The notes under the pieces: model-generated
The model's input: the letters and a program-made list of their open reading frames with translations, nothing else
Database searches by the model: none
Told to the model about the DNA's origin: nothing
Shown: positions 16,684-48,409 of the stretch, piece after piece
Layout of the letters: every line of letters begins with the position of its first letter
Numbering within the stretch: position 1 is the stretch's first letter
Position numbers and translations under genes: made by a program
Virus record (IMG/VR): IMGVR_UViG_3300028833_000141
Span: 1 to 64,000 of that record
Length of the DNA: 64,000 nucleotides
Source: a virus
Lineage: Duplodnaviria; Caudoviricetes
Reading direction: 5' to 3' (one strand)

Positions 16684-17910
16684 ATGCCAAATAAGAAAAA
16701 TGAAGGTTCAATAACGTATCTCTCTAATGGTAAAGTCCGATTACGCATTACTAACGGCACAAAAGTTATTATTGATAAGAAAACCGGAATGCCGAAAAAG
16801 ATTAAGAATCAAAAAGATTTTATTGGCAATTCTGAAAAAGAAGTTAGAAAGAAATATAAAACCTGGAAAAGCACCGCTGCCATCAGCGGAGAATCCAATT
16901 ATGGAAATCGCTCAGTGATGGAATGTATCTATGAGTGGATCAACAATGTAAAAAGTCTTACGCTAAAATCATCTTCCTTTTCACGTTTAATACAAGTTAC
17001 TGATACTTATGTCAATCCAAGATTCAATATTTTCAAAGTCAACGAAATAACTCCTGATATAATCCAATTCAATTTAATTAACGATCTAAAAAATAAAGGC
17101 TATTCGTATAGTACGATAAAAAAATGTGTCAATGTACTCACGGGATTTTATAGATGGGCGATAGGAACAGGTAAGGTAGATTATAACCCATGTGAAACTC
17201 TTATCTTGCCAAGCGATAAACTGCTCAAAGAGGAAAGAGGCGAGACTGACGAAATAAAATATTATTCAAAAGCTGAAATTCAAAAAATGATCAATGCAGC
17301 CGATTCTAAGAATAAGCATTGTTATGAAATCAATGATTGGAGATTTCCAAGAGCGTATGTTTATTTATTCGTAGTATACACAGGATTAAGATTGGGAGAA
17401 GTTCTTGCATTAACATGGGATGATTATGATGCTGAGAAGAAAACAATTAGTATTACTAAGGATGTTGTCGAATACAAAGATACAAAAACAAATAAAACAG
17501 TAACCAAAATTCAAACATCACCTAAAACAAGTTCAAGTCGAAGAGTTCTTGCACTCAACGATACAGCAGTCGATGCTCTGAATAAAATAAAAGAGAGAAG
17601 TTTTAACCCTAATAGCAAATATATTGTAGCCAACAGAAATAAAGATGGAAATAAAGAATATGTTGCTCCATCTAATTTCCGTAATGCCTTTAAAAGATTT
17701 TGTAATTATGCCGGCATAGAATATAAAGGTTTCCATGCATTAAGGCATACATTTGCTTCAATGATGTTTTCTCAAAAGATCGATGTCAAATATATTTCTA
17801 TGTGGCTCGGTCACTCGTCAGTTCAGGTTACTTATGATATTTATGTTCATATTATGGAAGAAGTAGGGTATGAAGATAAAACAGTAATTCCAGTAATCTC
17901 ACTTGAATAG
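16684..17910 (+). CDS. int: tyrosine integrase
   Basis: TGLRLGE, HALRHTF, LGHSS...TYDIY; N-terminal arm-binding-like region. Confidence 0.93.
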   Translation: MPNKKNEGSITYLSNGKVRLRITNGTKVIIDKKTGMPKKIKNQKDFIGNSEKEVRKKYKTWKSTAAISGESNYGNRSVMECIYEWINNVKSLTLKSSSFSRLIQVTDTYVNPRFNIFKVNEITPDIIQFNLINDLKNKGYSYSTIKKCVNVLTGFYRWAIGTGKVDYNPCETLILPSDKLLKEERGETDEIKYYSKAEIQKMINAADSKNKHCYEINDWRFPRAYVYLFVVYTGLRLGEVLALTWDDYDAEKKTISITKDVVEYKDTKTNKTVTKIQTSPKTSSSRRVLALNDTAVDALNKIKERSFNPNSKYIVANRNKDGNKEYVAPSNFRNAFKRFCNYAGIEYKGFHALRHTFASMMFSQKIDVKYISMWLGHSSVQVTYDIYVHIMEEVGYEDKTVIPVISLE

Positions 17911-20849: not shown

Positions 20850-22049
20850 TTAAGCCACCTTCCTTTTACATCGTTCTTTAGGATGTGATTTATAATATTC
20901 CCTCGTTAATTTATAACCACCGAATAATTCATTATATAATTTGATCATATTTCTTGCTGCATGGAAACTATGCGCAATTTTAGAATGCGCAAGCCAAGAC
21001 TGCATGGATGTATAAACATCATCATAAGTCATTTTGCCTTCTTTGACTTTGTTTACATATTTTTTCATTTTTCTACGCATACGGATGATTCCACCCTGAT
21101 CGAGTTTCTTAACAACTTTTCCGGTATCAGTTATATAATATTTAACTTTAAGAAACGCAAAACCTTTACTTGCCTTTGTAATGTATGTTTTCTTTTTATT
21201 AAAATGCATACCATACTTAGCTATTTGTTCATGTAATTCTGCCATTATCTTATTCAACACTTGTTTATCATTATGAATAATAATGCCATCATCCATATAA
21301 CGTATATAAAACTTGATTCCTAATTTATCTTTAATATAATGATCGAATTTATTAAGAACTGCTAAAGCCATGATTTGAGAAATCTGACTCCCTAAACATA
21401 TTCCAACATATTCATGGTTATATAATTTCTTTAGTTCAATTTCTCGTTTCTTTTCATCTTTAATTTGATTAATTTCTATCAATTTGTAAGATTCGATTAT
21501 TCCCATAATCAAATTTATAATTCTCGTATCTTCAAATAATTCCGTTAATACTCTATAGCATTGTTTATGAGGTATAGAATCAAAATAACTTTTTACATCA
21601 AACTTTAAAACGAACAGATCATTAGTTCTATATCTGCGTTTGGCTTTTTCAATAAATAGAGCCGTTCTTTGACGAGCAAAATCTACACCTTTACCTTTCG
21701 TACTCGCACCATTATCATATATAAGTTTTCCTTTAAGGGCTGGTAATAAAGCATAATCACAGATAACTCTTTGAATAACTCTATCTTCCATGCATATCGG
21801 TGTAATTTTTCTTTCTTTACCTCGTTCTCTTATAAAAATATACTTTTTATTTTGTATTTCAGGTATTAGACCAGATAAAATTATATCTATAGAATTATCA
21901 ATCTTGAAAATTGGTAGACAACTATAAGATTGAACGCTATATTTGTAATCAACTGATGCATGGCATTTCTTTAAAGATACGAACGCATTTTTATGTTCAA
22001 ATAATTCTTCTAATGTAATTTTACATTTCTGTTTAACTTTGGTTTTCAT
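20850..22049 (-). CDS. DGR reverse transcriptase
   Basis: GICLGSQISQ (DGR-type LGxxxSQ), YIRYMDD, FDVKSYFDSI; no group II intron X/En domains. Confidence 0.95.
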   Translation of the reverse strand: MKTKVKQKCKITLEELFEHKNAFVSLKKCHASVDYKYSVQSYSCLPIFKIDNSIDIILSGLIPEIQNKKYIFIRERGKERKITPICMEDRVIQRVICDYALLPALKGKLIYDNGASTKGKGVDFARQRTALFIEKAKRRYRTNDLFVLKFDVKSYFDSIPHKQCYRVLTELFEDTRIINLIMGIIESYKLIEINQIKDEKKREIELKKLYNHEYVGICLGSQISQIMALAVLNKFDHYIKDKLGIKFYIRYMDDGIIIHNDKQVLNKIMAELHEQIAKYGMHFNKKKTYITKASKGFAFLKVKYYITDTGKVVKKLDQGGIIRMRRKMKKYVNKVKEGKMTYDDVYTSMQSWLAHSKIAHSFHAARNMIKLYNELFGGYKLTREYYKSHPKERCKRKVA

Positions 22050-22425: not shown

Positions 22426-22561
22426 GAATCCGACCACGACACCATTGGTGTTGTTCGCGTTGTTGTTGTTGTTCGGATTGCCGTTATTGTTGACATTCAT
22501 AAAGTTCGTAGAGTTGGAGGCATTCGGTGAACGCTCCCACCAATTGTTCGCACGAACCCAA
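22426..22561 (-). repeat. DGR template repeat (TR)
   Basis: Minus strand reads WVRANNWWERSPNASNSTNFMNVNNNGNPNNNNNANNTNGVVVGF, rich in AAY codons. Confidence 0.96.
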
Positions 22562-22627: not shown

Positions 22628-23500
22628 TTAAAGTGCAGAGAATCTTTTCTTATCAGATTCTTGCACGGACAATAACATCTTAGTAGTTTGCTTTATGCAT
22701 TTAGATGTTCTTTTCTGATTTTTATTAGAAACATCATTATACATAAAGACTTCGCCAAGAGGCTTATTTAGTTTATACAATAAAGAAATTGCTGCTGAAA
22801 ATAAACCTTTTCGTCTTAAATAATCATCTTTCGTTTCAGGGTTTATATTATTAGCAGTATAAGCATTTGCAAAACACTCAATTGCCAAATCTTTTGCAAT
22901 CGATATTTCACAATCCCTTTCACTTTTAGGCAATTCCTTCCTGATCTTATTTATATATCTTGATAGTAAATATAAATTTAATAAAAATCTTGTTTTCTTG
23001 ATTTTATCGTAATTATATGCAAACATCCTTTTAAATTTGATCTTTGTTGATTTCTTTTCATCGAGAGCTTTAGCTAATCCGTATATTAATGCAGTTTCTT
23101 TATTGATGATTTCAGCTAAATACACGCGACTATGATAGGGTATTGGTTTAAGACTTGTTTCTGTAGAAGAACTTAAATTCCAATAATAATAAAAATATTT
23201 AATCAAATCATCAAATTCTGAGAGAACAGTTTTACATAAATCAAATCTTTTCTTATTTCTTTTCTTTTTAAATTCCGCATTGTTCTTATCATCTGCATCA
23301 TAGACACAATATAAATTATTAAGTTCTAAAATATCTTTATAAATATTATTTGCGATTTTCATAATTGGCTTCGAAATATCATCTTGATATTTCGGAGGAA
23401 TATTCCTCACTTTATTCTTAATTTCTTTATATACTCTATGATGATAATTATGAGAGTATTCAATAGTCGAAACTCTTCTATTATTCTTCAATATACTCAT
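22628..23500 (-). CDS. avd: Avd-like accessory protein, apparently two tandem four-helix domains
   Basis: Between target and TR; basic; MSILKNNR start and SDKKR end typical of Firmicutes Avd; 290 aa, about double the usual size. Confidence 0.75.
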   Translation of the reverse strand: MSILKNNRRVSTIEYSHNYHHRVYKEIKNKVRNIPPKYQDDISKPIMKIANNIYKDILELNNLYCVYDADDKNNAEFKKKRNKKRFDLCKTVLSEFDDLIKYFYYYWNLSSSTETSLKPIPYHSRVYLAEIINKETALIYGLAKALDEKKSTKIKFKRMFAYNYDKIKKTRFLLNLYLLSRYINKIRKELPKSERDCEISIAKDLAIECFANAYTANNINPETKDDYLRRKGLFSAAISLLYKLNKPLGEVFMYNDVSNKNQKRTSKCIKQTTKMLLSVQESDKKRFSAL

Positions 23501-23602: not shown

Positions 23603-26600
23603 TTAGATTGAGAAGCCGACCACGACACCATAGGCGTAGTTCGCGGCGCCGTAGTAGCCGTACGGATAGCCGTAAAAGAGGACATACATAAAGTAAGCAG
23701 AGTAGGAGGCATACGGTGAACGCTCCCACCAAAAGCTCGCACGAACCCAAAGACCACCATCATTAGCAGCAATTAAGTTGCCATCATTCAATCTCCAGAA
23801 TCCCATACGAGTATGTTTAGCTTTTGTTTCTGCGCTAACATAAATATACCCTATACTTGAATTACCAGTATTAATCCAAATATCACCTTCTTTAACAGAA
23901 CTACCTGTATATGCGGTAGGATCGGTATTCCCCGTATAGTATTCAGCATCTTCTGGAATAATAAACCCTGGAATCTTAACCCTTGATTTATCAGATGTGA
24001 AGAACGAAATAGCAGTACCTTCATCCGAATATGGCTGACTTGTCCAACCGCCAAGCTCTCTGTTCGCAGGAAGATATAACCTATCCTCAGAAGTAACAAT
24101 CTCAGAAGATTGATTACCTGCTGATGCGTTAATCTTAACTGTTTTAATGATCGATTGCAGCCAATACGGAAGTCCATTCCAAACAAAGGTATTGAGGAAT
24201 GTTCTCATTTCTGATTCATCCCAACCGCCAACATTTGTTGCAGTAGGATTCATTCTATGAAGCAAAGCTAAAGGATTATTTGCTATCCACGAACTGTTGG
24301 TTTTTGTACTGGTTTGTCCGGCTAATCTATAACGATCAGCACCAGCAAATTCCATACGCTGTTTCTGATGTGGGAAAGACGCAAGTTTGCGTGCGATTGT
24401 GTCTCCCAAATCATCGAACCAAACTTTGCACCAATGTATCCAGCCTTTGCCATAATAATCATGACCGCCATCACTGAATCTAACAGCACCTAATGCGAGT
24501 TTCATACTTCCGCTCGTATCTCTTGTTCTGATAAGCTCCGTAACAGTTATTGCATCATTATATGTATCAGCATTTAAGTTGAATGTATAAACAAAGAGAT
24601 GTGATGAACCTTTGGCATGTCTTAATACAACAATACCTCTCGTATCTGCATTTCCAACATTTACTGAGCGATCTCCCCATTGTATAGTAGGGTTGCTGCT
24701 ATATCTAAGTCTGAATCCCTCATTACCGCTCTCATCGAAACAAGAGACTAATGTTGCACCACTCTCATTTGTGTTCAAGAATTCAAAATCGATAGCCATA
24801 GTAAATGATGGCGAATCTTCATCAAATAAAGTAAAGTTGGTATCAAGATATTGAGTACCATCAAAATATCTATCTGTGACAATAGTGTTTTCCTGAACAT
24901 TATTAAATGTGAAATCAGACCCCATTGTAAATTCAAAGAAGTCTTTATCTTCAAAATAGCTACTTGCCATACCGGACTGGCATACTCCATACAGTTCTGC
25001 TGGACTCATATCACTTGCTTCTGTGCCAGCGATAGGACGTTCTTTTCTATCCCATACAGCGTATACATCAGTATCGCCTGTGATAAATCCTGTGCTCTTA
25101 TCCCACTGTAAGAATACATTATAGATATATGAACTCTCTTCATCCGTTCTTGTAGGAATATCGCCTGAGTAATCAACGCATTCACCATATTCTGCGGTCT
25201 GTGTTTCCAATGGCAGACCTGCTCTTGAATACCATGTTACCGTGTACTCTCTGACTGTTGTGCTATAGACCGCCTTAATAGATGTGGCTGCAAGAATCGC
25301 AGAATCTAAAGTATCCCATCCAGAGAAAGTATAATCATATTGTGCATCACTTTCATGTACAGGTGTAGAAATCCATCCTTCTGTAACCGGATTAGGTGGA
25401 TATGAACCTCTATCCACATACCATGTGAATAAAATAGTAGTTTCATCATCATTATAATAGGTTACAAGATACTGAGTAACAAGATTTCGTGGGTCATAAG
25501 TTACATCGAGATCAGCCCAATAATGAGTATAATTAAGAAGTTCCTGATTCCTTATCGCACCGCTGATATAAACATCACCACTCAGCAAAGAACTATTCAT
25601 AGCGATACATTTATTAAGTAAAACTGTATCTGGCAATGTCCAATCTATGCCGAGAATACGGATTGTTTGAAGTGTGTTTACTGCTGTCTGTAAGATCGAT
25701 AAGGCATCAATATTTGAATATTCGCATATAAAAGTTTCCAGATTTGCGTAGCTTGCTACTACTAAATCTGTAAGATAATTAATATTTCTAAAAGAAAGAG
25801 TTGAAATAGTTTCAGGCAAATGCGCTTTCTGCAATTTACCATTTGTTGCGAAAGATACGGCAGATATAGAAGTTCCTTCCGCATAGAAATTGAGTAAGTT
25901 AGCACAAGCTGTAAGGTTAACTGATCCCGTAAGGTTAGGGCAGTTTCTTACATCGAGCGTTTCAAGAAGAGTATTATTACCCATATTCAATGTAGTAAGG
26001 AATGAGTTTTCGTATCCTTCCGTAGTATTACCAATAACCAAAGTTCTTAATTTAGAAGCCTTTGAAAAATCATTATCATGTATATAACAAGCAGATAAAT
26101 CGTTAAGTGCTTGTATCCTGGATGCACAGTAAATAAGAATTGCCGTATCATCCATTTCTGTGAGAGTTGTTGTTATTTCGTATTCCTGTCCGGCTTTCGC
26201 TCTAATTTGTTGTGGGTTAGAAGAGTTTCCGTAACGGACAGTTAAATACATATCGGAATAAGGAACAATTCTAAGAGTATAATCAGGCTCAACAACTACA
26301 CCGGATTGTGGAGTATTACATCTGAACATAATCTGATCAGCGGTAATGTTTGTTCCGATATATTTTGTTCCAATATAAGCCTCTTGATCTCTCTCGAATT
26401 GCCTTCTTTGGTATTTCTTTCTACCATTCATCATTTCATTGAGGAATCTGATAGTGCCACCTTGATATGTTCTGAGATATTTTCTCTCAATATCAAGCCG
26501 CCATAATTCCTCTGGGAATTGTGATTGCCATGCATCAAATTCATTGATAAGAGAAGTTGCGCTCCAACAATTCAAACTTTCTCTACTTCTGTACATGGCT

Positions 26601-29600
26601 TCAAGTTGACTTCCCATGAGGTTACGGATTCTGCGCCAAAATACATTTTCAGCAGCATTATAGATAAAGCCGGAAGATGGATTTCCTTCTTGCTTATAAT
26701 CTATATCTTCATGTCCGTAAGTCATTGTAAGCTCACCTGAGTTATTACATTCTGTTACTTTTATGACCTATTAAAAAAATAGGCGAGAGAGGTTCTTCCA
26801 AAAGTGTCTTTACACTTGACCTCTCTTCTCGTGTTTCATTATTAAAAGGATTATTTCACGAGTTCAGACTATTGCATCATCCTAAGATGTTCCTTCGCTT
26901 AGTCGTTGTTCCTCCATATATAAGCAATAAAAAACTCATGCTTTGCACGAGATTAAAGATGAATATATGGTTGGAAGGCGTTGTCCGTCCTTTCGGAGTT
27001 TCGCCGTATATCAGAAGGAATTTTTTATACTTGGCACAAATAATCTATGCCAAGTGCCGTGTCAAAGTCATAACCCCATAAGTCGAAACGATAACCGTTA
27101 TTTATCGCTGCTTTGGCATTATTGATAGTATAATTACGAGCATCAGAACCCATTTCGGTAGCTTCGGCTTCTGTGATATAAGTTTTACCGTAGTGCCAGA
27201 ATGTATTCTTAGCTCTGTTATCAATCATTGTGTATCTTTCAGTAAACAGATACCAATAAAGCGGTGATTCAGATATAAACCAATCATCAATTTCTGATAC
27301 AAATTCAGCGTCAGTCGAAGTGATAACCCATTCATACATATCGCGCCATACCTGTTTTGACGCTTCTTGCTGTGCTTCGATCTCCGCACTTGAAATTGTC
27401 TCACCGTCTTTTGTTCCCATATCATATCTAAACTCAAACGAATCATCCCATGCTTCATATAGAGATTGGCGTTTCAGATTGTTCTCATTATTCCATTGTT
27501 CAGAAGTAATAGGGTAAACCATAGAAACACCCTCGTTAGGGTCATAAGTGATTTCATCATTTTCGTCAAGATAAACACCAGTCTGAAACCAACTGTTAGG
27601 AAGTGTATTATCTGATACCTCGACAACAAATTCTGCTAAATCTGTCGGATCATTTACACGAGTGTTATCAGTTTTCTTTGAATCTCCAATATTTCCAATT
27701 CCATAGAAATGCCAGCCTGTATCGGCAAATTCTCTATGAGTAGAAACATCAGGATCACTTTCTTTAATAAAGATAACGCAGTTGCAAAATTCCATTGAGT
27801 TTTTAACAAATGGATTTCGCTTCTGTCCTGGCGTTTTATAAGGAATATAATCATTAAATCTCTTTTGGAGAAGGGCATTATTCGCATTCTCAGAACTTGC
27901 GATATTCACCTTGATATTAAACCAATCATTAGGTACGGATGTACGAGTCAATGCGACTTTACCGCTACCATCTGAATATTGTGTCCCATCGCCAAGCGTA
28001 AGTTCTGTAATATATGTTGAGTCAAGCGGAATCTTACTTACGACTTGATGTTCGCCATCAAAGCCGAAGATAATATCAATATTTCTTCCTGCATAACCGT
28101 ATTCATTTGATGTAGTTCCTTCAATTTGTTATCCTATAAGCTTTTTATCTTATAGTTCTAATAGTTACAATTCCTATTAGTTCAGCATATCTTTTCACCC
28201 TCGTTATAGCGTTAGGTTTGCAGTTCGCTAATCTGCTCAAATCACCCTATATGTGATTGTGCTGCGGACTCGTGGGAAGATTATATTCTGCTATGCAGTT
28301 TCACTTCCTATGCGTTGCGTGTGACTATATTGTTACACATAGCCTTCCACTCTGATTTGCATTTCAGCATCCCAGATTTCTTCCGCAGTAAATATATCTA
28401 TATTTCTATAGATAGTGGGTAAGTTTTTCGCCCAGCATGATAACCATTGACGAATCTCCAATTATCTAAAATAGGATCACCATTTTTATGAATACACTCA
28501 ACATTCGTATATTTAACATAGTCCTTTTTATCGTTAGTAAAATGAGGACAATCGATTTTTATAACTTTCAAATCCGGACAAGCATTAGCAACCGATTCCG
28601 GTGTTAATGTATTATTCTCGTCATAGATTTGATTTCTCTCATATCTTGCAATCATTGTTTCTGCGTCTGGCGCATCAGCAATAAAGTTCTTCAAGATATT
28701 TGAATCGGTCAAAGACGAAGAGTATGCTTTCATTCTATAAATGTATACATCACAATCATCTGAGCCGATAGTGATAGGAACAGGCTGATACTGATAAAGT
28801 CTGTGTGCATCACTATAAAGCATTGGACGAGCAGCAACACCATCCTCGTAACTCATAATATATGATGTCGCATCTTCATTTTCCGTATCAAGCGGATTGA
28901 TATTAAACTCATATTCAATAATATCCTCTTCGCTGTAAGGAGTATAAAGATTATCAGTTGACGAGTACAGATACGCTTCGTGAGCGTTCATCTTTAATCC
29001 AACCTTTACATTATCCTCAGTAGGATAACAAGACAGGAATGTGGTCTGATTATCCCTGACATTCATTGTCTTGAATCTAACCTTAAATTCCGCACCGGAT
29101 TGTTTAGGATCATTAGCAAATAAGTTATAGCTAATATACGCCCTTGTTCCAGCCTTTACGCAGAAATATTGATTTCCGTCAGAATCAAGATTGTAACCAC
29201 CGTTATTCCAATCGAAGTTTTCAGATACAGACATTTTGACATTAGCATTATTAGCATCTTGCCAAAGCCTGTTTGCGCTACTATTAGACATTCCAACAGG
29301 GTTAAAATCAAATTCGAGATTTGCTGTGACAGGGGATATATCGTATCCAAGTTCTGCAACATCAACCTTGATGGTTACTGATGTAGCACCGCAAGTAATT
29401 GTCAATTCATGTAAAGCAATTTCTTCTGACTTGAACGCCCATGTATTAGCGTATGAAGATAATCTCAGAGTATTAACAATTTCACCGTCTACTGATAATG
29501 TAACAGATGGGGTAGTAGTTCTTGGATCAAAAACAACATAAGGAATTGTAACGGTATTATACTGTTTCGCTTCAACTTCACCATAATGATCGTATCTGTA

Positions 29601-31853
29601 AATACAGCCGATAATTGGTACTGTAGATTCCGAATCGTACCACATAATATCCTTGAAGATATGTTCTGTTTCAATTTCTACATTATTGATTTCCGCTGTC
29701 ATCCAACATTCAAGTAAATGTGCTCCATGTGCTTGTGATGGGAGAGAATATGACTGTAATACGCCGGATGCAGAGGTTGTTACAGATGTTAATTCAACGC
29801 CATCAAGCTTGAAATGAACAGTTTTTTGAATCGCTCCATAAGGTGTATATGTAAAGTTAACCGCTGAACCTACAGGATAAGTATTCCTATCGCTGAAATT
29901 TGATTCAAGTCTTACATCCGTTACTTGAACAGTCCAACTCTTTACATTGATAGAGCCGCCTTCGTCTGTGACAGTCAGCGTAAACTTCTGACTTCCAATA
30001 GAACAATAATCAGTAATATCAAAGGTATTTCTGCCTTGTACAAGGTTTCCGCTCATAACCGTTGTTGAGCCACGTTTAATTGTATATGTACCATCTACAT
30101 ATTCATTGTCTGAATCTGTCGATGAATAATCAATAACAATCAGAACAGGATCAGTGGTAGTACAAATAATAGGGGATGGGGTGATCTTATCTACAACAAG
30201 ATTTGTAGTAGAACTTGAACCGCCACCGCCACCACTCGGAAGTGTGAACTGACTTTTTACTGTTTCTGTCGAACCATCGACTTCATATAATGTATATACA
30301 TAAGTCTGATTATTTTCAGTCGTTAATGTCGCATAGTATGAAAGTCCTTCAACATCAATAGAATTGATTTGTTGTGCAAGCCTTTCAAGTGTTCTGCTCA
30401 GTCCTGTAATATTCTGCGTATTAACACTTACTTGGTCATTAAGTGCGCTTGTCATTACATCGATTTCACTCTTTGTGTAAGCATCTGAACCGATAGGACG
30501 GAAAGCATTATTAATCCATCTATAATGCTGATATAATCCTGCTGAGTTCAGAACATAATAATCAGTATATTCGTTTCCGCTTTCAGGAAGGGCAGATAAT
30601 ACTTCTGCTACTGAACCACCAACGATTTCCCAATATCCTGAGATATATTTATAGTAAATATAAGTTCCGTTATTTGCGAGAATGTAATCTGTATCTTCAT
30701 CACCGACTTCTGGCAATTCAGTTACTACTAATGTTGTTGCGCTACCGAATGTATCCCATCTTGATACATTATTTTCATCTGTAATCCACCAATATTTATC
30801 AAAACTGCCTGATGAATTTGGTATTAAATAGAATGTACGATTTTCTCCGACCGCTGGCAGTTCATTAACAATTGTGATTGAAAATGCGTCATAGTCAGCT
30901 AATGCAGCCTGAGTGTAGTTTCTCGCAAGCATCAGTATGCCTTGAAGCGCATCATGCAGATTATTATAGGTGAGCGTATCGCTTACTTGATAGGCTGCTC
31001 TGACAATACTTGCCAAATTATCAACGTCAAGTTGTACTGCGTCAGCCTTTGCTTTTGCATAATCGAATATATCTACTCGTCTGTTCTGAGGGTCATAGAC
31101 AGACGGTTGCATAGCATTATCTGCTTTTACAAGCGTTGATTCAAAATCGGTATCGACTTTTGATCTTGATAAAGTACCGTCTGCAATACTCAGCGCAGCC
31201 ATAGAACCAGAAGAAATGAGTTCAGCAAGTTCAGCCTGTACAGCATCATCAATAGCATTTGCGATAACATCACTGTTTTCAAGTGCGTCAAGCTGTTGTG
31301 CCATTCTATCGACTTGTGCCTGAGAAGCCTTTAATGATAATGCACTATTTATACTGTTGATGCTTGTTCCAATATCATCTATATCCGACTGATCCGCTTT
31401 TGTATTAATCTGTCTTTGTAATTCTCTGTCGGCTGCAACTAACTCAGCAGAGTTTTGTTCATTCCATGTAGTAAGATTATTTACTCTTGTTACAAGCTGT
31501 GTATATAATGATTGTGAAATATCTGTACTTTGAGCATCAGACACAAGAATATTAGGATCAATATTCAGAGTTAAATAATTTGTAGTAGCAATTACATCTT
31601 CATCACTACCATATAACATAACGGTGCAAGTTCCAGGTTGTATTTCCGATGGTAAATAAGCTCCGTTATCCTCATCGAGATAAACATTATAAAATACTCC
31701 CTCTTGACCAAACTGAGCGAATGTAGTAAGACTATCCCATTCGCTTGGTAAATTAAATACCAGCTTTATAAAATTTTGTGTACCTTCAATAAGTGTTTTA
31801 AGGTTTGTCGTAACTTTTAATTTTTGATTAACGACAGCTATTAAAATTTCCAT
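23603..31853 (-). CDS. giant tail fibre / receptor-binding protein, DGR target, spliced: join(31853..28430, 28121..27047, 26747..23603), 2547 aa
   Basis: BppU-like N-terminus, acidic ELPxxG repeats, CotH-kinase-like region, LRRs, B-repeats, ConA-like domain, C-lectin-like VR domain; splicing restores HAGQGTTS and DTALGINNSG in frame. Confidence 0.88.
23612..23750 (-). repeat. DGR variable repeat (VR) at the 3' end of the tail fibre gene
   Basis: Encodes [46 protein letters not shown]; matches TR except at TR adenines (one G>T, one extra codon). Confidence 0.96.
26748..27046 (-). ncRNA. group I intron B (299 nt, no ORF)
   Basis: 5' exon ends in U; P1 ACTTGGCAT/GTGCCAAGT; P3 TTCCTTC/GAAGGAA; P7 ACGACTA/TAGTCT; ends AACAGAATG. 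Confidence 0.92.
28122..28429 (-). ncRNA. group I intron A (308 nt, no ORF)
   Basis: P3 CTGCGGA/TCCGCAG; P7 ACGCATA/TATGCT; ends in G; removal restores the frame (C|AA = Gln). Confidence 0.87.
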
Positions 31854-38191: not shown

Positions 38192-41100
38192 CTATATTCT
38201 TCTCGTACCACCCGTTCTTACGAAATCTTTTTTGATACGCTCAGTAGTATAGTTATATGATTGCTCTAAGAAATCTTGACTAAACCGTTTAAGTTCTTCG
38301 ACAACAGATCGATCAACATTTCCCTCTATATTGATTAAATTATCATAGTGTTGATTAACACTGGCTGCACCAAATGTACCATTAGCGTTTATAGGCATTC
38401 TGCCTGATGCCATTTGATACAAGCGTTGGGTGAGGGCAGAAGGTACTACTCCGTCACCAGGATTGAAATGTGATATTATGCCGTTCTTAGTTACAAGCAA
38501 TTCACTTCCAGCTTCATTTGATAAACCAACAAGACTACTTCCTACTCTGCGTGTTCCGGATGCAAAGTGGGTTTGAATACCAGAAACACCATAGAAAGCA
38601 AGCAACTTTTCTAAAGATTTTGAAACTAAAGCTGCATTATCTTCTTGAATTGTTTTAGCATCAGCAAGAAGTTGTTTCATATCTTCGAGATTTACACCGA
38701 GTTTTTCCCATTTTTCGTCAAACTCTTCACTGAGAATGTCCTGCATCTCATCAAGGGCATCGGACGATAAATCGAAATAATGATCTCTGCGAGTTTCAGC
38801 TAAATCTTCTTGCGCTTCTACAAGCTGTTCTTGTAGCCTCGCCATAGATGCTTTAGCTTCTGCCGTTCCAATTCCTTCAAGTGCTGCTATCTGTGCAGTC
38901 AACTCTTGAATATCTTTAGTCTTATCTTTTATTGTCTTATCATAATCATAATATGACTTTTTGGCTGATAAAGCCTTATTTCGTGAGTCAACAAGTTTCT
39001 TCAAAGCATCAAGTTCTGCCTGATCAATATCCTTATACATTTCACGAATCTCATTTATATATCCCTTCATATCGGATGCAGAGGATAAGAGATTTTTTTG
39101 TAATTCGGCTTGTTTATCAAAATACTCTTCCTGAGTGTACATGCCTTGTGCATAAAGGTTATTCAGATTCTTAATGTCATTAGCGTAGTTGCCAACTTCA
39201 TCCCTTGTTGCTTCAAACTGCTTTGCTAACAAAGCGACTCTGGTAATACCATAATCTGTAAAGTTATGTTCTCTATCAAACAACATATCATCATCAATCA
39301 AATTAGATAAGCCGTTTAAAGTATCACTAAGCTTTTCTGCTGCTTTGTGCGCACGCTCGAATGAACGCCAATACACATCATCACGCAAAGCATCCCTGAG
39401 TTTATCAATATCTGCCTGTAAAGAATTGACATCCGCTTTATATCCCATGTAAGCGGTTTCCCATTCATCAGCAGTTTTGCCGCCATACACTCTATCGCTT
39501 GAACTTAATGCCTTTTGCCAATCACGATATGCTTGATTTGCTTCACTTTCCAAATCGGCTAACTTAGAAAGGTTAGCATCAATTTGATTTGTATAATCTT
39601 GTTCAGAAGAATCACGACCAAGTTGTTCATTCAAATCAAGAATGGATTCGTAATATTTCTCGATAGAGTCAAGACGAGCGAGTGCTTTGTCAAGAACATC
39701 ATAAGGCAATTGTGCGATTGCATTATTATATTCTTCTTGATCTTTAGCGCACTCTTGAATCTTAGTTCTATAATCAGAGACAGCATTAGTAGCATCTATA
39801 TATTCCTGACTGCTTGTAGTCCAAAGACCTTTGGCTAAATTATCAGCAATTACTTCATTTAATGCACTAATTTCTCTGGTATAAGAATCTTGCAGACGCA
39901 TACTATTACCGATCAATGAACCATAATCATAACTACTTAAAGATAATCCTCTTGTAGTTTTCAAATCTTGCTGTGCTTGCAATAAATCCATATCGGCAGT
40001 AATAGTATTCTGCTCATTAGTAAATTCTTGCTGCACATTCTCAAATTTCTGCCGACCAAGTGCAGCTTGTTCGATCTTAGCTGTTGCTTCGTCAATTTCT
40101 AATTGTGCTTGCGCTTCGTTATATGAAGTCAAAGCCATGTTATAGTTATAACATGCTTGATAGAAAGCCATAGATACATAGCCTTTAGAAACGTATTCGG
40201 CAAGTTTAGTAATTATAGAAGCACTGATTTCTTTCCTGGAATTAACAGCACTTTTTGCAGCTTCGATATATTGTTCAACTGCTTTACGAGTCTTATTATT
40301 ATTTGATAATTTCTTTAATTTGCTCGTAACGCCAGACATATCTGACACTGAACTAATATAAGAATTTACAGAATCACTTAATCTATTAACAAGTTCTCTG
40401 TCATTGTCAACAATAGCAGAGTAGTATGTTGAAGCCTGATCAAGTAAGCTGTTCTTTGCAGTAAACCCTGTTGCTGCATCTGCTTGTTTTGACAAAACAT
40501 CAATTCGGCTGTCTGCTTGATCATTTTGTGCTTCTGTCATATCAAGCATATTTTGGAATATCTCGGCACTTGTTTCAGCATAATTAACCGCAGCTTCAAG
40601 ACGAGTATCTTCTAATATCTTCTGAATATCTTTACTTGTCGTTAAACCTTCATTATATGAAACGAAACTAACATACAAACTTGGATTATATTTTCTGATA
40701 GTTTTAAGAGTACCGGATGCGATTGCGGTTTTTTCTTTTATACAGTTTTGTGCCTTCTTTATAGCATTCCTATATGCTTTAAGCTGTTTCTTTGATAATT
40801 TCTTTCCCTTATACTTCCGCTTTTTAGCATTCTTTGTTTTATACGCTTTTGATGCTTTCTTTCCGGCTGAATTTGCTGCTTTATCTTCTTGTGCTGCAAA
40901 ATCACTTTCAATTGATGTGACGTTTTCATCGTATGCGGATTGCTGTGATAAGAGAAGTTCATTCCTTGCTGCCAATTGACTCATAGCAAATGCGCCTGTA
41001 GCATTTGAACCACTTGTCGCAATTGTCGAGAGAGATTCCGCTAAATCTATTTTAGCATCCCTTTGAGCATCACGAAGGTCTTTAAGACTCTTGATGTAGT

Positions 41101-44100
41101 CATAAATGCTTTCTCTGAGTTCATCAACAGCATCTTTAGCATCTTGCGCTTTGTCATAAAATTCCTGGTAATCCTTTATGACTTCCTGCATCTTTTTGCC
41201 GTAAGACGAAATATTCAGTTTACCATTTGCAACACCTTTACGGATATTCTTTGCAGCTTTTTTGCTGATTAGTTTTCTCTTAACAGCTTGATTCAACACA
41301 GAATTGGCTTTACTTTGATAACGATTAGACGCTATGCTTTCATTTCCGATTTGCGTAAGAGAAGCGGTAATAGCAGACGAATATTGACTTGCAGCTTTGT
41401 CGTAATTGCCACGCTCAATATTTAAGTCCGCACGCTTTGTGAATCTTTCTATCTTTTTGGTCTGGCGTTCGAGGCGTATTTCGATCCAATCAAATAATTT
41501 CTCAAACCAATTTTGGAATTTCTCTAAAGCCTTTCCACCGCCTTTTGCGTAAGCAGTTCCTTCTGCGAGGGCAGAACCATTAGCCATAGTTCTTCCACGA
41601 CCAAGAGCATATCCATTATTTAATAATGAACGAGATTGGAGGTGATTAAATACAATCGCATCTTTTGGCAAATCAACGAATTCTGCGCCTTTTTCGCCAA
41701 CAGTATGCCAAGTTGCATTGTGAGGGTCTACTACGATTTCCTCCATTTATATTTTCGCTGATTCGCTACATCAGCGAGATTGTAAAACAATCCTCATACT
41801 TTCGCATGAGATTAGACTATATCTTTATGTGATATATAATTCACATATTTACCATTTCGGATTACCAATCGCTTGCAATCCTACTCCCTAAAAGGGATAG
41901 TCGTTGAACCTTTTCCTATTCGGAACTTGGCTGCTGATTATCCAATTCATACAGTTTTCAAACTTTCACGATTAGTCATTTTTCATACTTGCGTTGTAGT
42001 CTGTATGACTCTAAGGATGTTCCAGCAATTAGATAAATTTGCTCTATACATTACTGTATAGAGGGGCATACGAAATACCCAATTCGCCCACTAAAGTACG
42101 ACCACCTGCGCCAACGCCCCAATAGCCTCCGGCATATGATGTGCCGTAAGCGTGGGCAGAACCATTTGCTCGATTTCCACCGCCTGATGGTGGGGAATTA
42201 GTTGATACATTCGTCCAATATATGTATCTATATTGATTTGAAACAGATAGAGTGTTGGTATAATTATCTTTCCAGTTTACTATTCCGTTAGCAGTTTGGT
42301 CTGGCATTTTATCATAATTATCTTTCCAGTTTACTGTTCCGTTAGCATTTTGATCTGGAAGTGGATCAACATTCATATCTAATGCAACTGCAAAATCGTT
42401 GTTCTGCAACGCTGATTTAATACTATCAACAGAAGAGGTATCTACTTCTGCATCAATTTCCAATTCCGCAGATTGATCTTGGATTTTCCCTTGAAGTTCT
42501 GCTAATTTAGCATCTGATTCAGATGTATCTGCTCCAACTGAAACTTCTATATCTCTTTGGTTTGAAACTTGATTAAATTCATTTAATAAACTAACAAGTT
42601 CTTTTTGCCCCTTAGATAAGCCTTTTGTGTCTACTTTCAGTATCGCAGGTTTATCAAGTTCTTGTAATTCCGATTCACAATAAGCAATTATTTTATTTGC
42701 GTTTTCAATATCAGAAGTATCAACATCAGGACGAAGCTTCAAATCGTTCATTTGATTGATATTTCTTTCAAGAACTTTTCTATAATCATCGCCTTCGGCT
42801 GTAATAGTTAGGGCAGAACCTATACCAACTTCATCTTTAAATTTACTTAGTTTTTCTAAAGATTTAACAGCATCCTCTGCACCATCTTTCAAATCGCCAT
42901 GAGCGATAGTGTCACCAACATCACTTAATGAGTATTCAAAATCTGAAAGAGATAATCCTGCTTCGGCAAGCTGAGTCTGTAAATCAGACAGTTTTTCTTC
43001 GCCAATGCTTTCGGTAAATTTCTCCATAGAGAAAGATGCTTGATCTGCTTTCGGAACATATTCACTTATGATGTCCGATAAGGCTTGTTGCTTTTGAGCC
43101 GCAACTTCGGTAGCTGTTCCAGAATATAAAACTGCCTCATTGTATTTACGAACAGTATCAACACATCCCTCGTAAACATTTCCGTTAGCATCAAAGAGGG
43201 AGGCGTAATTCTCTTGCATTGTCGCAGCATCTTCCGACATTTTCTGCGTAAGTTCTTGTGATTCTTGTTGGATGCGTTCTAATTCTGCTTTATCATCTTG
43301 ATAAGCCTGTTGTCTTGCATTCCTTGCAAATGGAGAAACATCTGCCATATCTTCCGGAGTATAGCGTTGCATCTTTGTGCTGAGTGCTTCTTCTTGCCTA
43401 TTAAGAGAATTAAGCTGATTTTGTCTTGCACTATACCGATCTATTAAAGATAATGAACCAAATGAATCAGGTTTACTAAGAACCTCATTAGCCGCTGTTG
43501 CTGCACTACGACCTTGAATCTCGGCAAGCCTCTCTTGCAGTTTGATTTGGTTTTCAAGAAGTCTATTTTGCCGTTCAAGATTATTTAATTCTTGTTGTTC
43601 ATTTATAGATAACTTATCTTTATTCTGTAATTCTTTTCTGCGAATATTATTTTCCGAAAGCTCTTTATTTAAAGATTCTAAACTCGATTGAGTTTCATTA
43701 TATGATTTTCTTGAATCTTCGGCTTTCTTTTGCATTTCACCAAAAGAGGTAGTGCAAAGATCAATAAGTGCAATTGTTCCGGCAATTCCGGCAGAAACGC
43801 CAATAAATGATCCTAAAGCTGTAGTAGATAATCCTAAATATTTTGCTAAAGAAGCAAAGGATTTTTCAACACCGCCTAATTTAGCAATCTTTAATATGCC
43901 AGCGATTCCTGCTCCTGTTCCTACAGTTCCAAATAAACCAATCTCTCCTGTGATAGAATCAATAATTCCAAGAATTTGTGTAAGTCCATCAACGACTACA
44001 CCCATATCTTCCCTTGTGAAAAGATTCTGAGCAATGCCTACTCCGGTTTCTCTAAGTGCATTAAGTTTAAATGTGAGGGATTCCGATACGGTTTCCATCT

Positions 44101-47100
44101 CTGCCATAGCTGAACCGGCACTTTCAGACATGGATTTAAGTGATGATTCTACGGCATCAAAATTGTCAAGAATCGCGGAAACGATTTGACCTTGCCGCTT
44201 TCCTGCTAATTTTTCTAATAGTCGAGCTTGTTGTTTGTCAGTAAGATCATCGTATATTTTAGAAATATCTCTAAGTAAATCTACGGTAGATTTATACTCA
44301 GTTTTATTTTTATCAGTAAATAAGGATATGCCTTCCGGATGATCAGCAGTTTTTGTAAGATCGGCTATATCTCCGGAGAGTTGTTCTACACCGCCAATGT
44401 ATTGTTCGGTCTCTTCATCATATCCTCTGATACGCATTGATAATGTTTTCAAAGCTGTCAATCTGTTACTTTCCCATATTCTAATGGTACTGACCATCAT
44501 TTGATGGCGGTTAGTCATTTCTGGCTAACTCCGCAATTTCATGATTAGGTTATAGTTGCGGTTCGGACTGTATCTTCTATGAATGGCTGAACCAACTACA
44601 TTACTGTATTTGGTATTACAGTCTCTACGGATTCTGTATTATTGTATTCATTTTTTATATAGAAGGATTACAATAATACAGTCTTTCCTCGGTCTATGCC
44701 GCCTCCGGCTTTTGACCGATATAGCCATTTTTATTGTCGGCAAGCTGTTTACCGACACTTGCAGCATCCCTTGTGACTTCTGTAGCTGCTGTTCCCAGAG
44801 CTATTGTTTCATCAAGAGTGTTGTTTGCGGCAGCCATAGCTGACGATGATCTGGTTAAAAACTCTACAATGTCTTGATTTGATACTGCTTGTGTGTTCAA
44901 AAAAATCTGTTACTTTCACCTTTAATTGAGGCTACTGACCATATTCTTATATGGCGGTAAGGACGTTAATCCTTACTCTCACGTTTCTTTTTTAATGAGT
45001 TATAGCGTGAGTTCAGACTATATATTCATCCCAAAGAGGGAGGATAACTTCACAATACTTGTTACCAAGTACCGCCTGTAGTCGTTACGGATTCTAAAAA
45101 TTTATCTAATTCTTCCTCTATTTGTTCTGTGTTTTGAGTATAATTTAATCTTAATAATGGAATTTTATTATCATTACAATAATTGTTTTTAATATTATCT
45201 CTTATTACCATTAATTTATAACTCTCTTCTCCACCAAACCATTTAATAGGTTCAAAGTGTTGTTTTCCATCATATTCAATTAAACCAATCACTTGTTCAT
45301 TTTCATCAATTATTGCAAAATCAAATTTCAATTTATATGTGTATCTACAATCAGCAAATGTATATTGTGGAATATGCCTAATATTATGACTATTCATGTA
45401 ATGTTTTATTATTTTCTCTCCTTTTGATGTGATCTTGCAACCACAAGAAGTAGTGGAATTATCATTTATATTAGCTGGCAATGCAACAAATTCTTCATGG
45501 CATATCGGACATTCAAACCACCATAACCATGTTCCATTTTCATTCTTTTTATATGGTGTAATTGCTTTAACCCCACAATCAGAAACAAAACCAGTCCAAT
45601 CTTTTGTACTTGTCTCAGTTATTCTTTCTTTATTATAACAACCGCAAGAAGTCGTATGTCCTGTTTGAACATCATTTTTATTATAAATACCAATTGTTCC
45701 GCAGTCACAACGACATTTAACCTTTGGTCTCTTTTCATTCCATAGCGTTTCTAAAACAAGTAGTCTCCCAAATCTTTGACCGTCAATTTCTTTGCCAAAT
45801 GTTCTTCTCATTACTTCCTTTTTCATACATCCACACGAAGTTAATTCTGTGCTTGCTTTTCTTAATGGATATGCTTGCCTTATCACTTCATTACCACAAT
45901 CACATTCACATAAACAAAAAGTCTTTTTATTTTTATAATTTGGCAACATTTCTTTGACAACTAAATGTCCATATCTATTGCCAACCATATTTATAACACT
46001 AATAAAAAATCACCTCCTTACAAGGGGTGATTAGATAAATTTTTAGTCTTTCCTCGGTCTATGCTGCTCCCAGCGTTTGACCGATATAGTTATCTGCTAA
46101 AATCCATTTCGGATTTCCATACGTTACCGTATGTTTCGGCAACACTTTACCGATTTTGTTAATTTTACTTGCGACTCCATCAAGCGCATCGCTGGCTTCG
46201 ATTTTATAAGCCTTCATTACGGAGATTAATCCGTCATTAGCTTGCTCGATCGTCATGCCAGGAGATATCGATTTGAATACACTCGATACTTCTGACATTG
46301 TTTTGGAATCTTCCAGATTATATCCAAGACGCGACCAATCCGCTGCACCTTGAATAATATCTTTAGTAGTAGTACCAAATTTCTTAGCACTATCATTTGC
46401 TGTAAAATAAAAATCGTTCAACTGCTTTCCTGTAGCTGAACTTGTTTTCTTTAAATCAACGAGAGCATCATCGAGTGCCACAACTTCATTGATTCCTGAT
46501 TTTATCGTTCTTATAGAACCATATATAATTGTCGAAGCACCAACATAATTTGATAGTTTACTGAATGCACTTTTCATTCTTGAACCGAAAGTTACAACAT
46601 TCTTTCCGGCAGCTTTCGATTCTTGACTGATAGTGTTAAATCTTTCGTTAATCCTTTTTAAGTCAGACGAATTGACCTTGCCGCTTTCGCTTAAAGTATT
46701 CAATTCATTTACTAATCTTCTAACTTCTGCACCATATTCTTTAGCAGCCTTAGTGCCGGAGTTTAAGAATTGATTCATCTTGTTTTGAGATGAAGCGATT
46801 TGTGATGCACTCGCAAACTGTTTCATTTCAGCAGAAACACTCGATATTTGATTCTTAGTAGTTGTTAAAAGTGCATCATACTCTCTATACTGATTTACAA
46901 GTTTACGAGAACCATCAATACCATTCGATTCAGTTGTACGCATAGCCGTTGCCATTTGTTGCAACTGATTGATATTAGATTGAATAGTAGTATTTAATGT
47001 ATTGCCAGAATTTGCAATCTTATCATAGTTCGCCTTAACTGATTGTAAATCAGAGTTTAATTTTCCAGTATTGACCGATTTTAATGCTTTGTTGTAATCA

Positions 47101-47348
47101 GAGAGATATTTGCTAACATTATTGCTACGCCAAGAAGAACCGCTTTTTGTAGCCTGTTGCATACCATTCTTTAAACTTTTACCAGCATTACGACCAATAC
47201 TATTGAATTGCTTTTGCAAAGCCGACATATCGACATTGCCGATTTTTACATTTTTTAATACTATCGGTTCTTTTCCGATTGATTGCAGTTGGGAGCTTAT
47301 GCCACTTAAATCTAATGTAGCTTTTACTTTTGCTTCAAACTGAGACAT
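38192..47348 (-). CDS. tape measure protein, spliced: join(47348..46149, 44897..44751, 44458..42077, 41743..38192), 2426 aa
   Basis: TP901-like tape-measure core; splicing restores KIG|NTQAVS, SVG|TALKTLSMRIRG and GELG|EEIVVDPH in frame. Confidence 0.9.
41744..42076 (-). ncRNA. group I intron C (333 nt, no ORF)
   Basis: P1 GGGT/GCCC; P TTGCTGGAA, Q AATCAGCAG; R GTTCAACGACTA; S AAGATATAGTCT; ends ATAAATG. Confidence 0.93.
44459..44750 (-). ncRNA. group I intron D (292 nt, no ORF)
   Basis: P1 TGTCGGT/GCCGACA; P3 AATGGCT/AGCCATT; P7 GAGACTG/CAGTCC; ends AACAGATTG. Confidence 0.92.
44898..46148 (-). mobile_element. group I intron E (1251 nt) with homing endonuclease ORF in the P6 region
   Basis: P1 TCGGT/GCCGA; P10 GTGTT/AACAC; P3 GATAACT/AGTTATC; P7 ACGACTA/TAGTCT; ends in G. 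Confidence 0.92.
45062..45988 (-). CDS. intron-encoded homing endonuclease (Cys-rich repeats + Vsr/EDxHD-like nuclease)
   Basis: Three repeats ending SCGC; C-terminal LKFDF...IEYDGKQH...RDNIKN; last codons overlap the P7 5' strand. Confidence 0.8.
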   Translation of the reverse strand: MVGNRYGHLVVKEMLPNYKNKKTFCLCECDCGNEVIRQAYPLRKASTELTSCGCMKKEVMRRTFGKEIDGQRFGRLLVLETLWNEKRPKVKCRCDCGTIGIYNKNDVQTGHTTSCGCYNKERITETSTKDWTGFVSDCGVKAITPYKKNENGTWLWWFECPICHEEFVALPANINDNSTTSCGCKITSKGEKIIKHYMNSHNIRHIPQYTFADCRYTYKLKFDFAIIDENEQVIGLIEYDGKQHFEPIKWFGGEESYKLMVIRDNIKNNYCNDNKIPLLRLNYTQNTEQIEEELDKFLESVTTTGGTW

Positions 47349-47362
47349 TGATTACCTCCTTT

Positions 47363-48409
47363 CTACAAATCAGTTAGACCGCGCTTTTCTACTTGTTTAA
47401 TGCCATCTTCACCAAAATATTTTTCAAGTTGAGAATCACTTGTTCTATCATCGTAAACTCTGAGCATTTCGCTGCTCGTCCATCCTTGAATGGTTTGAAC
47501 GACCGCCTCAGGTAAATTCTGTTCAAGCAACTGAGTAGTGAAGAAATGTCTTAAAGCATGTAGATAAATTGGTTTACCCATTATATTTGAAAAAGTTCTC
47601 ACCCAAGAGTTAAGCGTGGTAATACCAATATGTTCATCGAGCCATTCTCCATCTTGATATTTCGGAAATAACCAATCAGAAGATATTCCCAATTTCTCAC
47701 GATCTTTCAGCCATAAGTCTAAATACGGTTGAAATGGTTTAGCTAAAACATAAACATCTAATAATTTTCCTCGTGATCCGCGACCTTTTGTAACCATTTT
47801 CTCAGGCGTTTTATATAACGAACCGCCACAAATCAAATTCTCTTCTTGGAAATAAGAAACTTTGAATCTCGTTAATTCGGCTTTTCTTTTACCGCTATAC
47901 ATAGCAAGTGCGACAAGACAAGCCTTTTGATAATCTTTTCTCTCAATCAATTTATCTAAAAGAAGCTGCAAATCTTCCTCTTGAAAAACCGATTTTTCTC
48001 TAACCGCTTCATCCGCAGGAGATTCAATTTTACGGACTATCGGTTTATATCCATCAAATTCATCATCCAAAATGTTTTCTATAAAATTAGAAAGACTACT
48101 CAGTGTAGCTTTAACTGTTCTCGTTCTTCTCGGACTCCAACCCCATTCATTGATGCAATGATTTTGAAATTTTGCTATCTCTCTCTTGCTTAAATCTACA
48201 AAGAATTTGTTTTTGTTATACTCTAAATTCCAACACCAAAATACATGCAGATTTGCACGATATTGTTTTATCGTACTTTTTGCACGATCAACAGATTCTA
48301 AGTATTCTATAAAGTCATTCTCTAATTCTATATTTTCTGGATTTATGTCTTTTAACTTTTCTTCGGTTGTGATTTTATTGTAGACAGTTTTTCTACCATC
48401 TTTATTCAT
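47363..48409 (-). CDS. second tyrosine recombinase, inside the late operon
   Basis: YSGKRKAEL, HALRHFF, QGW...MLRVY; no arm-binding domain. Confidence 0.85.
   Translation of the reverse strand: MNKDGRKTVYNKITTEEKLKDINPENIELENDFIEYLESVDRAKSTIKQYRANLHVFWCWNLEYNKNKFFVDLSKREIAKFQNHCINEWGWSPRRTRTVKATLSSLSNFIENILDDEFDGYKPIVRKIESPADEAVREKSVFQEEDLQLLLDKLIERKDYQKACLVALAMYSGKRKAELTRFKVSYFQEENLICGGSLYKTPEKMVTKGRGSRGKLLDVYVLAKPFQPYLDLWLKDREKLGISSDWLFPKYQDGEWLDEHIGITTLNSWVRTFSNIMGKPIYLHALRHFFTTQLLEQNLPEAVVQTIQGWTSSEMLRVYDDRTSDSQLEKYFGEDGIKQVEKRGLTDL

Follow-up and report, generated by a model that had tools for sequence, protein, structure and literature searches.

Three open reading frames (ORFs) on the minus strand of the IMG/VR phage record IMGVR_UViG_3300028833_000141 were confirmed, by comparison with homologues, to read as one 2,547-aa gene of tail-fibre type, the target of an adjacent diversity-generating retroelement (DGR), whose expression would need two precise excisions. 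The stretch that was analysed (the window) consists of the first 64 kb, positions 1 to 64,000, of this 76.6-kb linear record, a metagenomic fragment estimated to be about 50% complete. We consider it highly probable that the gene carries two group I introns that are self-splicing passengers with no mechanistic link to the DGR. The kinds of element involved are known; their combination is undescribed but recurrent.

A fibre gene in three exons

The three pieces are an ORF of 1,151 aa in the ORF list (28398..31853, minus strand), an open frame that runs from stop to stop (27025..28128, minus strand), contains no ATG and has its first TTG at 27951, and an ORF that supplies the third piece of the fibre gene (23603..26767, minus strand). 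Excising 28122-28429 and 26748-27046 (minus strand) fuses them into a single frame, as follows:

28430..31853, minus strand: exon 1, 3,424 nt; codons 1-1141 and the first base of Gln1142; encodes the fibre's N-terminal part and the beginning of the predicted CotH-like domain
28122..28429, minus strand: intron 1, 308 nt, no ORF; predicted group I-type RNA
27047..28121, minus strand: exon 2, 1,075 nt; core of the predicted CotH-kinase-like domain; lacks a start codon upstream of codon 59
26748..27046, minus strand: intron 2, 299 nt, no ORF; predicted canonical group I intron
23603..26747, minus strand: exon 3, 3,145 nt including the stop codon; end of the predicted CotH-like domain, leucine-rich repeat (LRR) region, and C-terminal lectin-type DUF6273 domain with the variable repeat (VR)

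The joined exons comprise 7,644 nt and are open throughout: 2,547 codons are followed by the stop. The two junctions encode GYHAGQGTTSNEY and DTALGINNSGELT. The initial annotation of this DNA had proposed the same in-frame joining into 2,547 aa; the excision is exact, and intron-free homologues are continuous at both junctions. The splice positions are forced, because no other cut gives the invariant Gln at the first site or an intron ending in G at the second: the Gln is restored only by GGG C|AA GGA, and Ile-Asn-Asn together with an intron ending in G is obtained only from GGC AT|T AAT AAC. Each intron has an early in-frame stop, a TAG at 28398-28400, 28 nt inside intron 1, and a TAA at 27025-27027, 19 nt inside intron 2. 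Such stops a short way inside the intron are usual in phage group I introns.

The three pieces are collinear on a single PHROG profile, phrog_14959, of 2,494 positions, in which exon 1 matches positions 473-1083 and exon 3 positions 1634-1944. Homologues align with residues 1-1144 of the exon 1 piece and then continue straight into exon 2. When the joined product was compared to full-length relatives, one alignment segment extended across both junctions, at 45-55% identity.

Homologues without introns

We collected 40 related IMG/VR loci in a pattern scan with exon 2 and searched them by tblastn with the three pieces. In nearly all 40, exons 1, 2, and 3 are consecutive, in one frame and without a gap. 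The first junction reads H[AS]GQGT[TS]S in one frame in 39 of the 39 loci that span it (one has TAG for the Gln), and the second reads [AGS][LI]G[IL][ND]N.G in one frame in 35 of the 38 that cover it. The tblastn search for intronless homologues suggested in the initial annotation thus returned dozens that are continuous across both junctions, and the junction peptides predicted there, HAGQGTTS and ALGINNSG, occur in the continuous gene of dozens of intron-free IMG/VR homologues. Among 1.8 billion representative proteins there are 479 relatives, and most of the best are 2,100-3,000 aa long, with exon 2 matching their middle. A tblastn search with exon 2 against 50,697 GenBank phage records gave no match. 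Neither site holds an intron in the closest relatives, whose exon 2 is 82-86% identical and which carry the same fibre with an Avd-like gene and a reverse transcriptase (RT) downstream.

These homologues bear on the possibility that the pieces are three separate proteins, or are joined by something other than splicing, such as translational bypass or a frameshift. Gene callers would list three ORFs, and the ATG at 26725 in exon 3 is preceded by AGGTGA. However, this ATG encodes the conserved internal Met of GELTMTYG, and exon 2 has no start before codon 59 while the conserved domain starts at its first codon. The inserts are structured RNAs of about 300 nt with covariation, and the homologues, for which the initial annotation had considered three separate proteins with their own ribosome binding sites, are single genes. 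We regard this alternative as scarcely credible.

In the stretch checked, in-frame TAG codons were the only in-frame stops in the fibre homologues at loci L014, L030, and L035, with 5, 1, and 15 of them, respectively. In L035, a TAG replaces the invariant Gln of HAGQGT. It is therefore probable that TAG is decoded as Gln in the late genes of some relatives.

Intron 2

By its predicted structure, intron 2 is a canonical group I intron. P1 has 8 bp, CUUGGCAU/GUGCCAAG, and ends in U.G; the Rfam group I model RF00028 aligns the same pairing as P1. The other helices are P3 (UUCCUUC/GAAGGAA), P4 (GGCG/CGCC), P5, P6, P6a, P7 (GACUA/UAGUC), P8 (CAUC/GAUG), P9, P9.1, and P9.2; a P10 of 5 bp can be read from the sequence, and the terminal nucleotide is G. 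Searched with the intron alone, RF00028 aligned over the full model and in the same register as our manual model (23.5 bits; E 4.4e-4 in a 326-nt search). In a per-genome search, intron 2 was the second-best match of the record (E 2.5e-5). RF00028 did not find it in the window when the gathering score was applied, nor at E<=10 when a 2.6-kb stretch was searched.

A pattern scan for the P4 region placed at least 80 IMG/VR loci in the intron 2 family. In 14 compact members, 91.6% of the alignment cells are paired in the model, as opposed to 38-45% with slid partners. Both sides have changed in 47 of the 68 pairs, and the covariation score is 0.460, versus about 0.09. P7 contains one covarying pair. 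The conserved 3' ends of the two intron families are GAUAACAAAUUG and AGUAACAGAAUG. From the intron 2 family we built a core model of 93 positions covering P7-P8-P9 (R1). In the window, this model finds intron 2 and two sites in the tape-measure gene; across the whole genome of Staphylococcus phage Twort, its best matches are the orf142 introns, which themselves score 64-101 bits with RF00028.

At another locus, L221, the fibre gene contains two introns of this family that are separated by 15 nt (1219-1514 and the adjacent 1133-1212). They occupy the sites DND|T and GI|NN and leave a micro-exon of five codons between them.

Intron 1

Intron 1 has a P1 of UGGGC/ACCCA whose splice-site pair is C.A, a P2 capped by a GAAA loop, a P3 of CUGCGG/CCGCAG, helices P4-P6, a P7 of GCAUA/UAUGC in place of the usual GACUA/UAGUC, and P7.1, P8, P9, and P9.1. 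It ends in G, and a P10 of 3 bp can be read from the sequence. The family, with at least 106 IMG/VR loci in a pattern scan, was modelled with P1, P2, P3, P4, P5, P6, P6a, P7, P7.1, P7.1a, P9, and P9.1, with P3 and P7 crossing. The 24 compact members have 88.2% of cells paired, against 30-42% when the partners are slid; both sides have changed in 47 of the 64 pairs, and the covariation score is 0.576 versus about 0.1. Covariation is seen in P3, P4, P5, P6, P6a, P7.1, P9, and P9.1. Intron 1 retains all invariant columns and all helices of its family. Its architecture thus appears to be of group I type, supported by covariation, with three non-standard features: the C.A pair, the P7, and the lack of an Rfam match.

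The initial annotation had described both introns as having P1/P3/P7 cores and a terminal G. The group I-type architecture and the G hold for both, and a standard core was too generous a description of intron 1. Likewise, of the Infernal searches with group I models that it had suggested, the one with intron 2 gave the full-length match below threshold described above, and the one with intron 1 gave none.

The intron 1 site follows the first base of a Gln codon, and therefore any intron there must cope with a C at position -1. By eye, P1 in many family members appears to read GGU/GCC, and the family consensus is UUGCC. The relatives at the same site, in loci L143 and L211, have a P1 of GGGGC/GCCCC, in which C(-1) is opposite G; these introns are longer and contain an endonuclease-sized ORF of 180-200 aa. 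The splice-site regions are at 28420-28434 (minus strand) in the window, L143:5215-5262, and L211:2210-2260. A lineage that has settled where the exon ends in C is natural material for asking how strict the U.G rule is.

An alternative fold with CUGCGG/CCGCAG as P4 and a P7 of AGCA/UGCU was rejected in view of the alignments with the elements of phage phiR1-37 and locus L043. Among alternative 5' splice sites ending in U, none combines an intron ending in G with the invariant Gln.

In blastn searches, intron 1 had matches in non-coding gaps of many phages. In cultured phages, relatives lie between the gyrA fragments of Yersinia phage phiR1-37 and in the tail genes of Clostridioides difficile phage phiCD211, just upstream of the annotated Intron_gpI. 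The phiCD211 element (L041:1310-1576, at about 28600-28867 of the record) is unannotated and is located between the coding sequence (CDS) of a "minor tail protein" and Intron_gpI, just before the tape-measure CDS. In phiCD211, the minor tail and tape-measure CDSs may together form a single gene interrupted by two introns, with about 23 nt as a micro-exon.

Class of the fibre protein

In Pfam searches, the fibre was given only DUF6273 and weak LRRs, and the central domain was left unnamed; Pfam CotH had no match at E<=0.1 on three full-length relatives, and a sequence search of the PDB with a 12-sequence profile had no match for the central domain. The central 710 residues encoded at locus L001, which has no intron there, were modelled with AlphaFold (mean predicted local distance difference test score, pLDDT, 71.8; predicted template modelling score, pTM, 0.76). 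In Foldseek, the model matched the Bacillus cereus CotH kinase structures 5jd9/5jda, with E 2.5e-7, probability 1.00, and a TM-score of 0.66 on the target; nothing else was found under E 0.5. The model thus points to a CotH-kinase-like fold for the central domain.

The fibre belongs to the published class of DGR targets that combine a CotH-like kinase, LRRs, and a C-type-lectin tip. Wu et al. 2018 (PMC5758913) have long phage targets of this type, in which a CotH-like kinase is combined with a C-type-lectin VR, as category f1, and the same class is PC_00012 of Roux et al. (bioRxiv 10.1101/2020.04.01.020958; also PMC8008677). As in those targets, the protein is a phage protein of about 2,000-2,500 aa, the CotH-like domain is far from the C-terminal lectin-type VR, and an RT is encoded downstream. 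Unlike the targets as published, the gene described here is in three pieces. A search for "intron" in PMC5758913, bioRxiv 10.1101/2020.04.01.020958, and PMC8008677 found no mention of interrupted targets, and literature searches on DGRs with group I introns and on CotH with DGRs returned no paper on naturally interrupted targets.

The diversity-generating retroelement

The RT, the template repeat (TR), and the VR form a real DGR, downstream of and overlapping the end of the fibre gene:

20850..22049, minus strand: DGR reverse transcriptase, 399 aa; Pfam RVT_1 9e-18, phrog_1423 2e-66
22426..22561 (approximate), minus strand: DGR template repeat, from the TR/VR comparison
22628..23500, minus strand: Avd-like accessory gene, 290 aa; weak phrog_3206 (Avd) match, 8e-4, residues 179-288
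23613..23750 (approximate), minus strand: DGR variable repeat, forming the final ~45 codons of the fibre gene; identity to the TR, 79%

The substitutions between TR and VR are at TR adenines in 25 of 26 cases; the remainder is one G>T, plus a 3-nt indel. As stated in the initial annotation, the VR lies in the last exon and both introns contain stops. It is inside the lectin-type DUF6273 domain and ends 8 nt before the stop codon. The Avd-like gene is positioned between the fibre gene and the TR and RT, and this position is kept in intron-free relatives. At 290 aa, it is about twice the usual size, and the Avd PHROG matches its second half only; this double-length form is kept in ten intron-free relatives.

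Like the DGR of Bordetella phage BPP-1, this one combines an RT, a putative accessory protein, and a TR with a VR that is mutated at adenines and located where a receptor-binding gene ends. In mutagenic retrohoming, the established DGR mechanism, TR RNA is used to rewrite the VR in DNA (PMC5703328). The target mRNA is not used in this process, and splicing therefore cannot gate mutagenesis; it would affect expression only. In a BPP-1 laboratory construct, the T4 td group I intron was placed in the TR, where it reports the RNA intermediate (PMC5703328). The present system is like that construct in that a group I intron and a DGR occur together; unlike the td intron, the introns here are 3-4.5 kb upstream of the VR, in the coding region of the target, and have no role in retrohoming.

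Distribution of the introns

Junction counts cover all fetched loci; loci from the intron-sequence scans are among them, and some contigs are counted more than once. The first junction is continuous in 56 of 58 loci and interrupted in two, and the second is continuous in 36 of 55, with inserts of 0.8-1.2 kb in the other 19. Four loci have inserts at exon-2 codon 140/141. ORFs of about 180-240 aa are present inside inserts. Introns also occur at DND|T (loci L033, L040, and L217), which is 15 nt upstream of the site used in the window, and at a position within exon 2 in L091. In other phages, relatives of the two introns are spread over at least five sites of the same fibre gene, and members of the families occur in many genes. 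The CotH-like domain of this fibre class is a homing hot spot with five or more sites. The RT is retained in the intron-bearing loci L034/L186 and L173.

At least 20 other contigs carry introns in the fibre gene. As predicted in the initial annotation, automated annotation would miss the real target: gene callers and DGR catalogues would report only the last exon, of 1,040 aa, and calls of this kind would lose about 1,500 residues, including the CotH-like domain. Because of these other contigs, the same error probably affects many IMG/VR phages. Both intron lineages are large, yet are missed by RF00028 at the gathering score (there was no such match at the family copies in 19 loci with members of the two families, 8 and 11, respectively), and Rfam-based counts of phage introns are therefore underestimates; the unannotated element of phiCD211 is an example.

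Passengers, regulators, or decaying introns

The initial annotation had also proposed that diversification is gated by splicing. This part is not supported: mutagenesis acts on DNA, close relatives with the same DGR are intron-free, and the intron families are mobile. A narrower form of regulation would have splicing as a rate-limiting or condition-dependent step that produces a tunable mix of the full, diversified fibre and a 1,151-aa product without the tip. Unspliced RNA would end translation 10 codons into intron 1, and the splice-site pair has been changing, since the same-site relatives have C-G. C.A wobble geometry at the splice site is pH-dependent in model ribozymes. Against such regulation, DGR mutagenesis is independent of the target mRNA, the close relatives have kept both the DGR and the fibre without the introns, and the introns come from mobile families, many of whose members contain endonuclease-sized ORFs and which are spread over many genes and sites. 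No free-standing homologues of exon 1 only were seen; proteins of ~1,416-1,470 aa that end at the second junction have, by length alone, the size expected of intron-truncated products. We judge regulatory gating of this kind to be very improbable, and give equally little credence to the specific proposal that splicing of intron 1 is limiting and condition-sensitive through its C.A pair, where the same-site relatives have C-G. If it were true, ribozyme chemistry would be a real control on the display of a hypervariable receptor-binding tip.

We read the introns as passengers because relatives with the same DGR are intron-free and because the intron families are mobile, endonuclease-bearing, and scattered. 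Their distribution is typical of selfish elements that home into conserved motifs, and not of a regulatory device. A late structural fibre gene would have been invaded twice, at the motifs GQ|GT and GI|NN, which are conserved in the CotH-like domain. The invaders would be group I introns without ORFs, each from a different lineage of phage introns, and both lineages are widespread. The primary transcript would fold, and each intron would excise itself through two transesterification steps initiated by guanosine; the ligated mRNA would be translated into the full fibre, while ribosomes that reach an unspliced intron would halt within 7-10 codons. Separately, the adjacent DGR, with its RT, Avd-like gene, and TR, would rewrite the VR DNA at the 3' end of exon 3. 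No new DGR-ribozyme mechanism is suggested by these data.

Several points weigh against reading both inserts as self-splicing introns of an expressed gene. Intron 2, at 23.5 bits, is under the RF00028 gathering score of 50, and the matches of R1 to Twort are weak (E about 0.01-0.05). Reaching that score is diagnostic of a group I intron and does not define one mechanistically. RF00028 gives no match to intron 1 at E<=10, even when the intron is searched alone. Intron 1 is without the near-universal U.G, the exon-final C facing an A, and its P7 is invariant across the family, so that this pairing is a matter of complementarity alone. The splicing of both introns, and its efficiency, is what we infer from the DNA. 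The source is a metagenomic fragment.

Some of the same points would fit a decayed gene, in which one of the introns, with intron 1 the likeliest, has lost the ability to splice and the fibre gene is dead or dying: intron 1 lacks the U.G and an Rfam match, any endonuclease ORF has been lost from both introns, and the record is a fragment that may not represent a viable phage. However, the frame is open over all 2,547 codons and aligns in one piece, at 45-55% identity, with full-length relatives; no invariant position or helix of its family is missing from intron 1; and the differences between VR and TR are confined almost entirely to adenines, the pattern of an active DGR. Decay is therefore an improbable explanation in our view, and intact passengers remain the reading that we prefer.

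Comparison with the Twort introns

In Staphylococcus phage Twort, orf142 is said to contain three self-splicing introns in one gene, of subgroup IA2 (reportedly the work of Landthaler & Shub in 1999 and Golden in 2005). As in orf142, several small ORF-less introns are found here in one phage gene, and intron 2 shares with the Twort introns the R/S core (CAACGACUA ... AUAGUCUGAAC) and the 3' end motif GUAACA.AAUG/UUG. Whereas the Twort introns are above the gathering score of RF00028, intron 2 is below it and intron 1 scores nothing. Intron 2 also differs from them in the sequence of P4-P6, the absence of P2, and its long P9.1/P9.2, and intron 1 differs in its P7, GCAUA/UAUGC, and in the C.A at the splice site.

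Other genes and introns in the window

The window also encodes portal, tape measure, minor tail and tail fibre proteins, endolysins, DNA polymerase, NrdD, and integrases. The tape-measure gene (38192-47348) is split as well: the ORFs 46059..47348, 42044..44518, and 38192..41746 (minus strand) are collinear on phrog_4211. An intron at 41793-42086 scores 95.6 bits with RF00028 and is the only match in the window at the gathering score. The core model of the intron 2 family has its two other sites in this gene at 44976-45092 (E 1.6e-5) and 44529-44632 (E 0.005), and the ORF at 45062..45988 is an HNH/homing endonuclease. Together with the two in the fibre gene, this brings the number of group I-type introns to five in a 25-kb stretch of late genes. 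An integrase-like gene (tyrosine recombinase; phrog_1, 2.6e-34) is located at 47363-48409 (minus strand), inside the tail module and directly upstream of tape-measure exon 1, and a second integrase is at 16684..17910 (plus strand).

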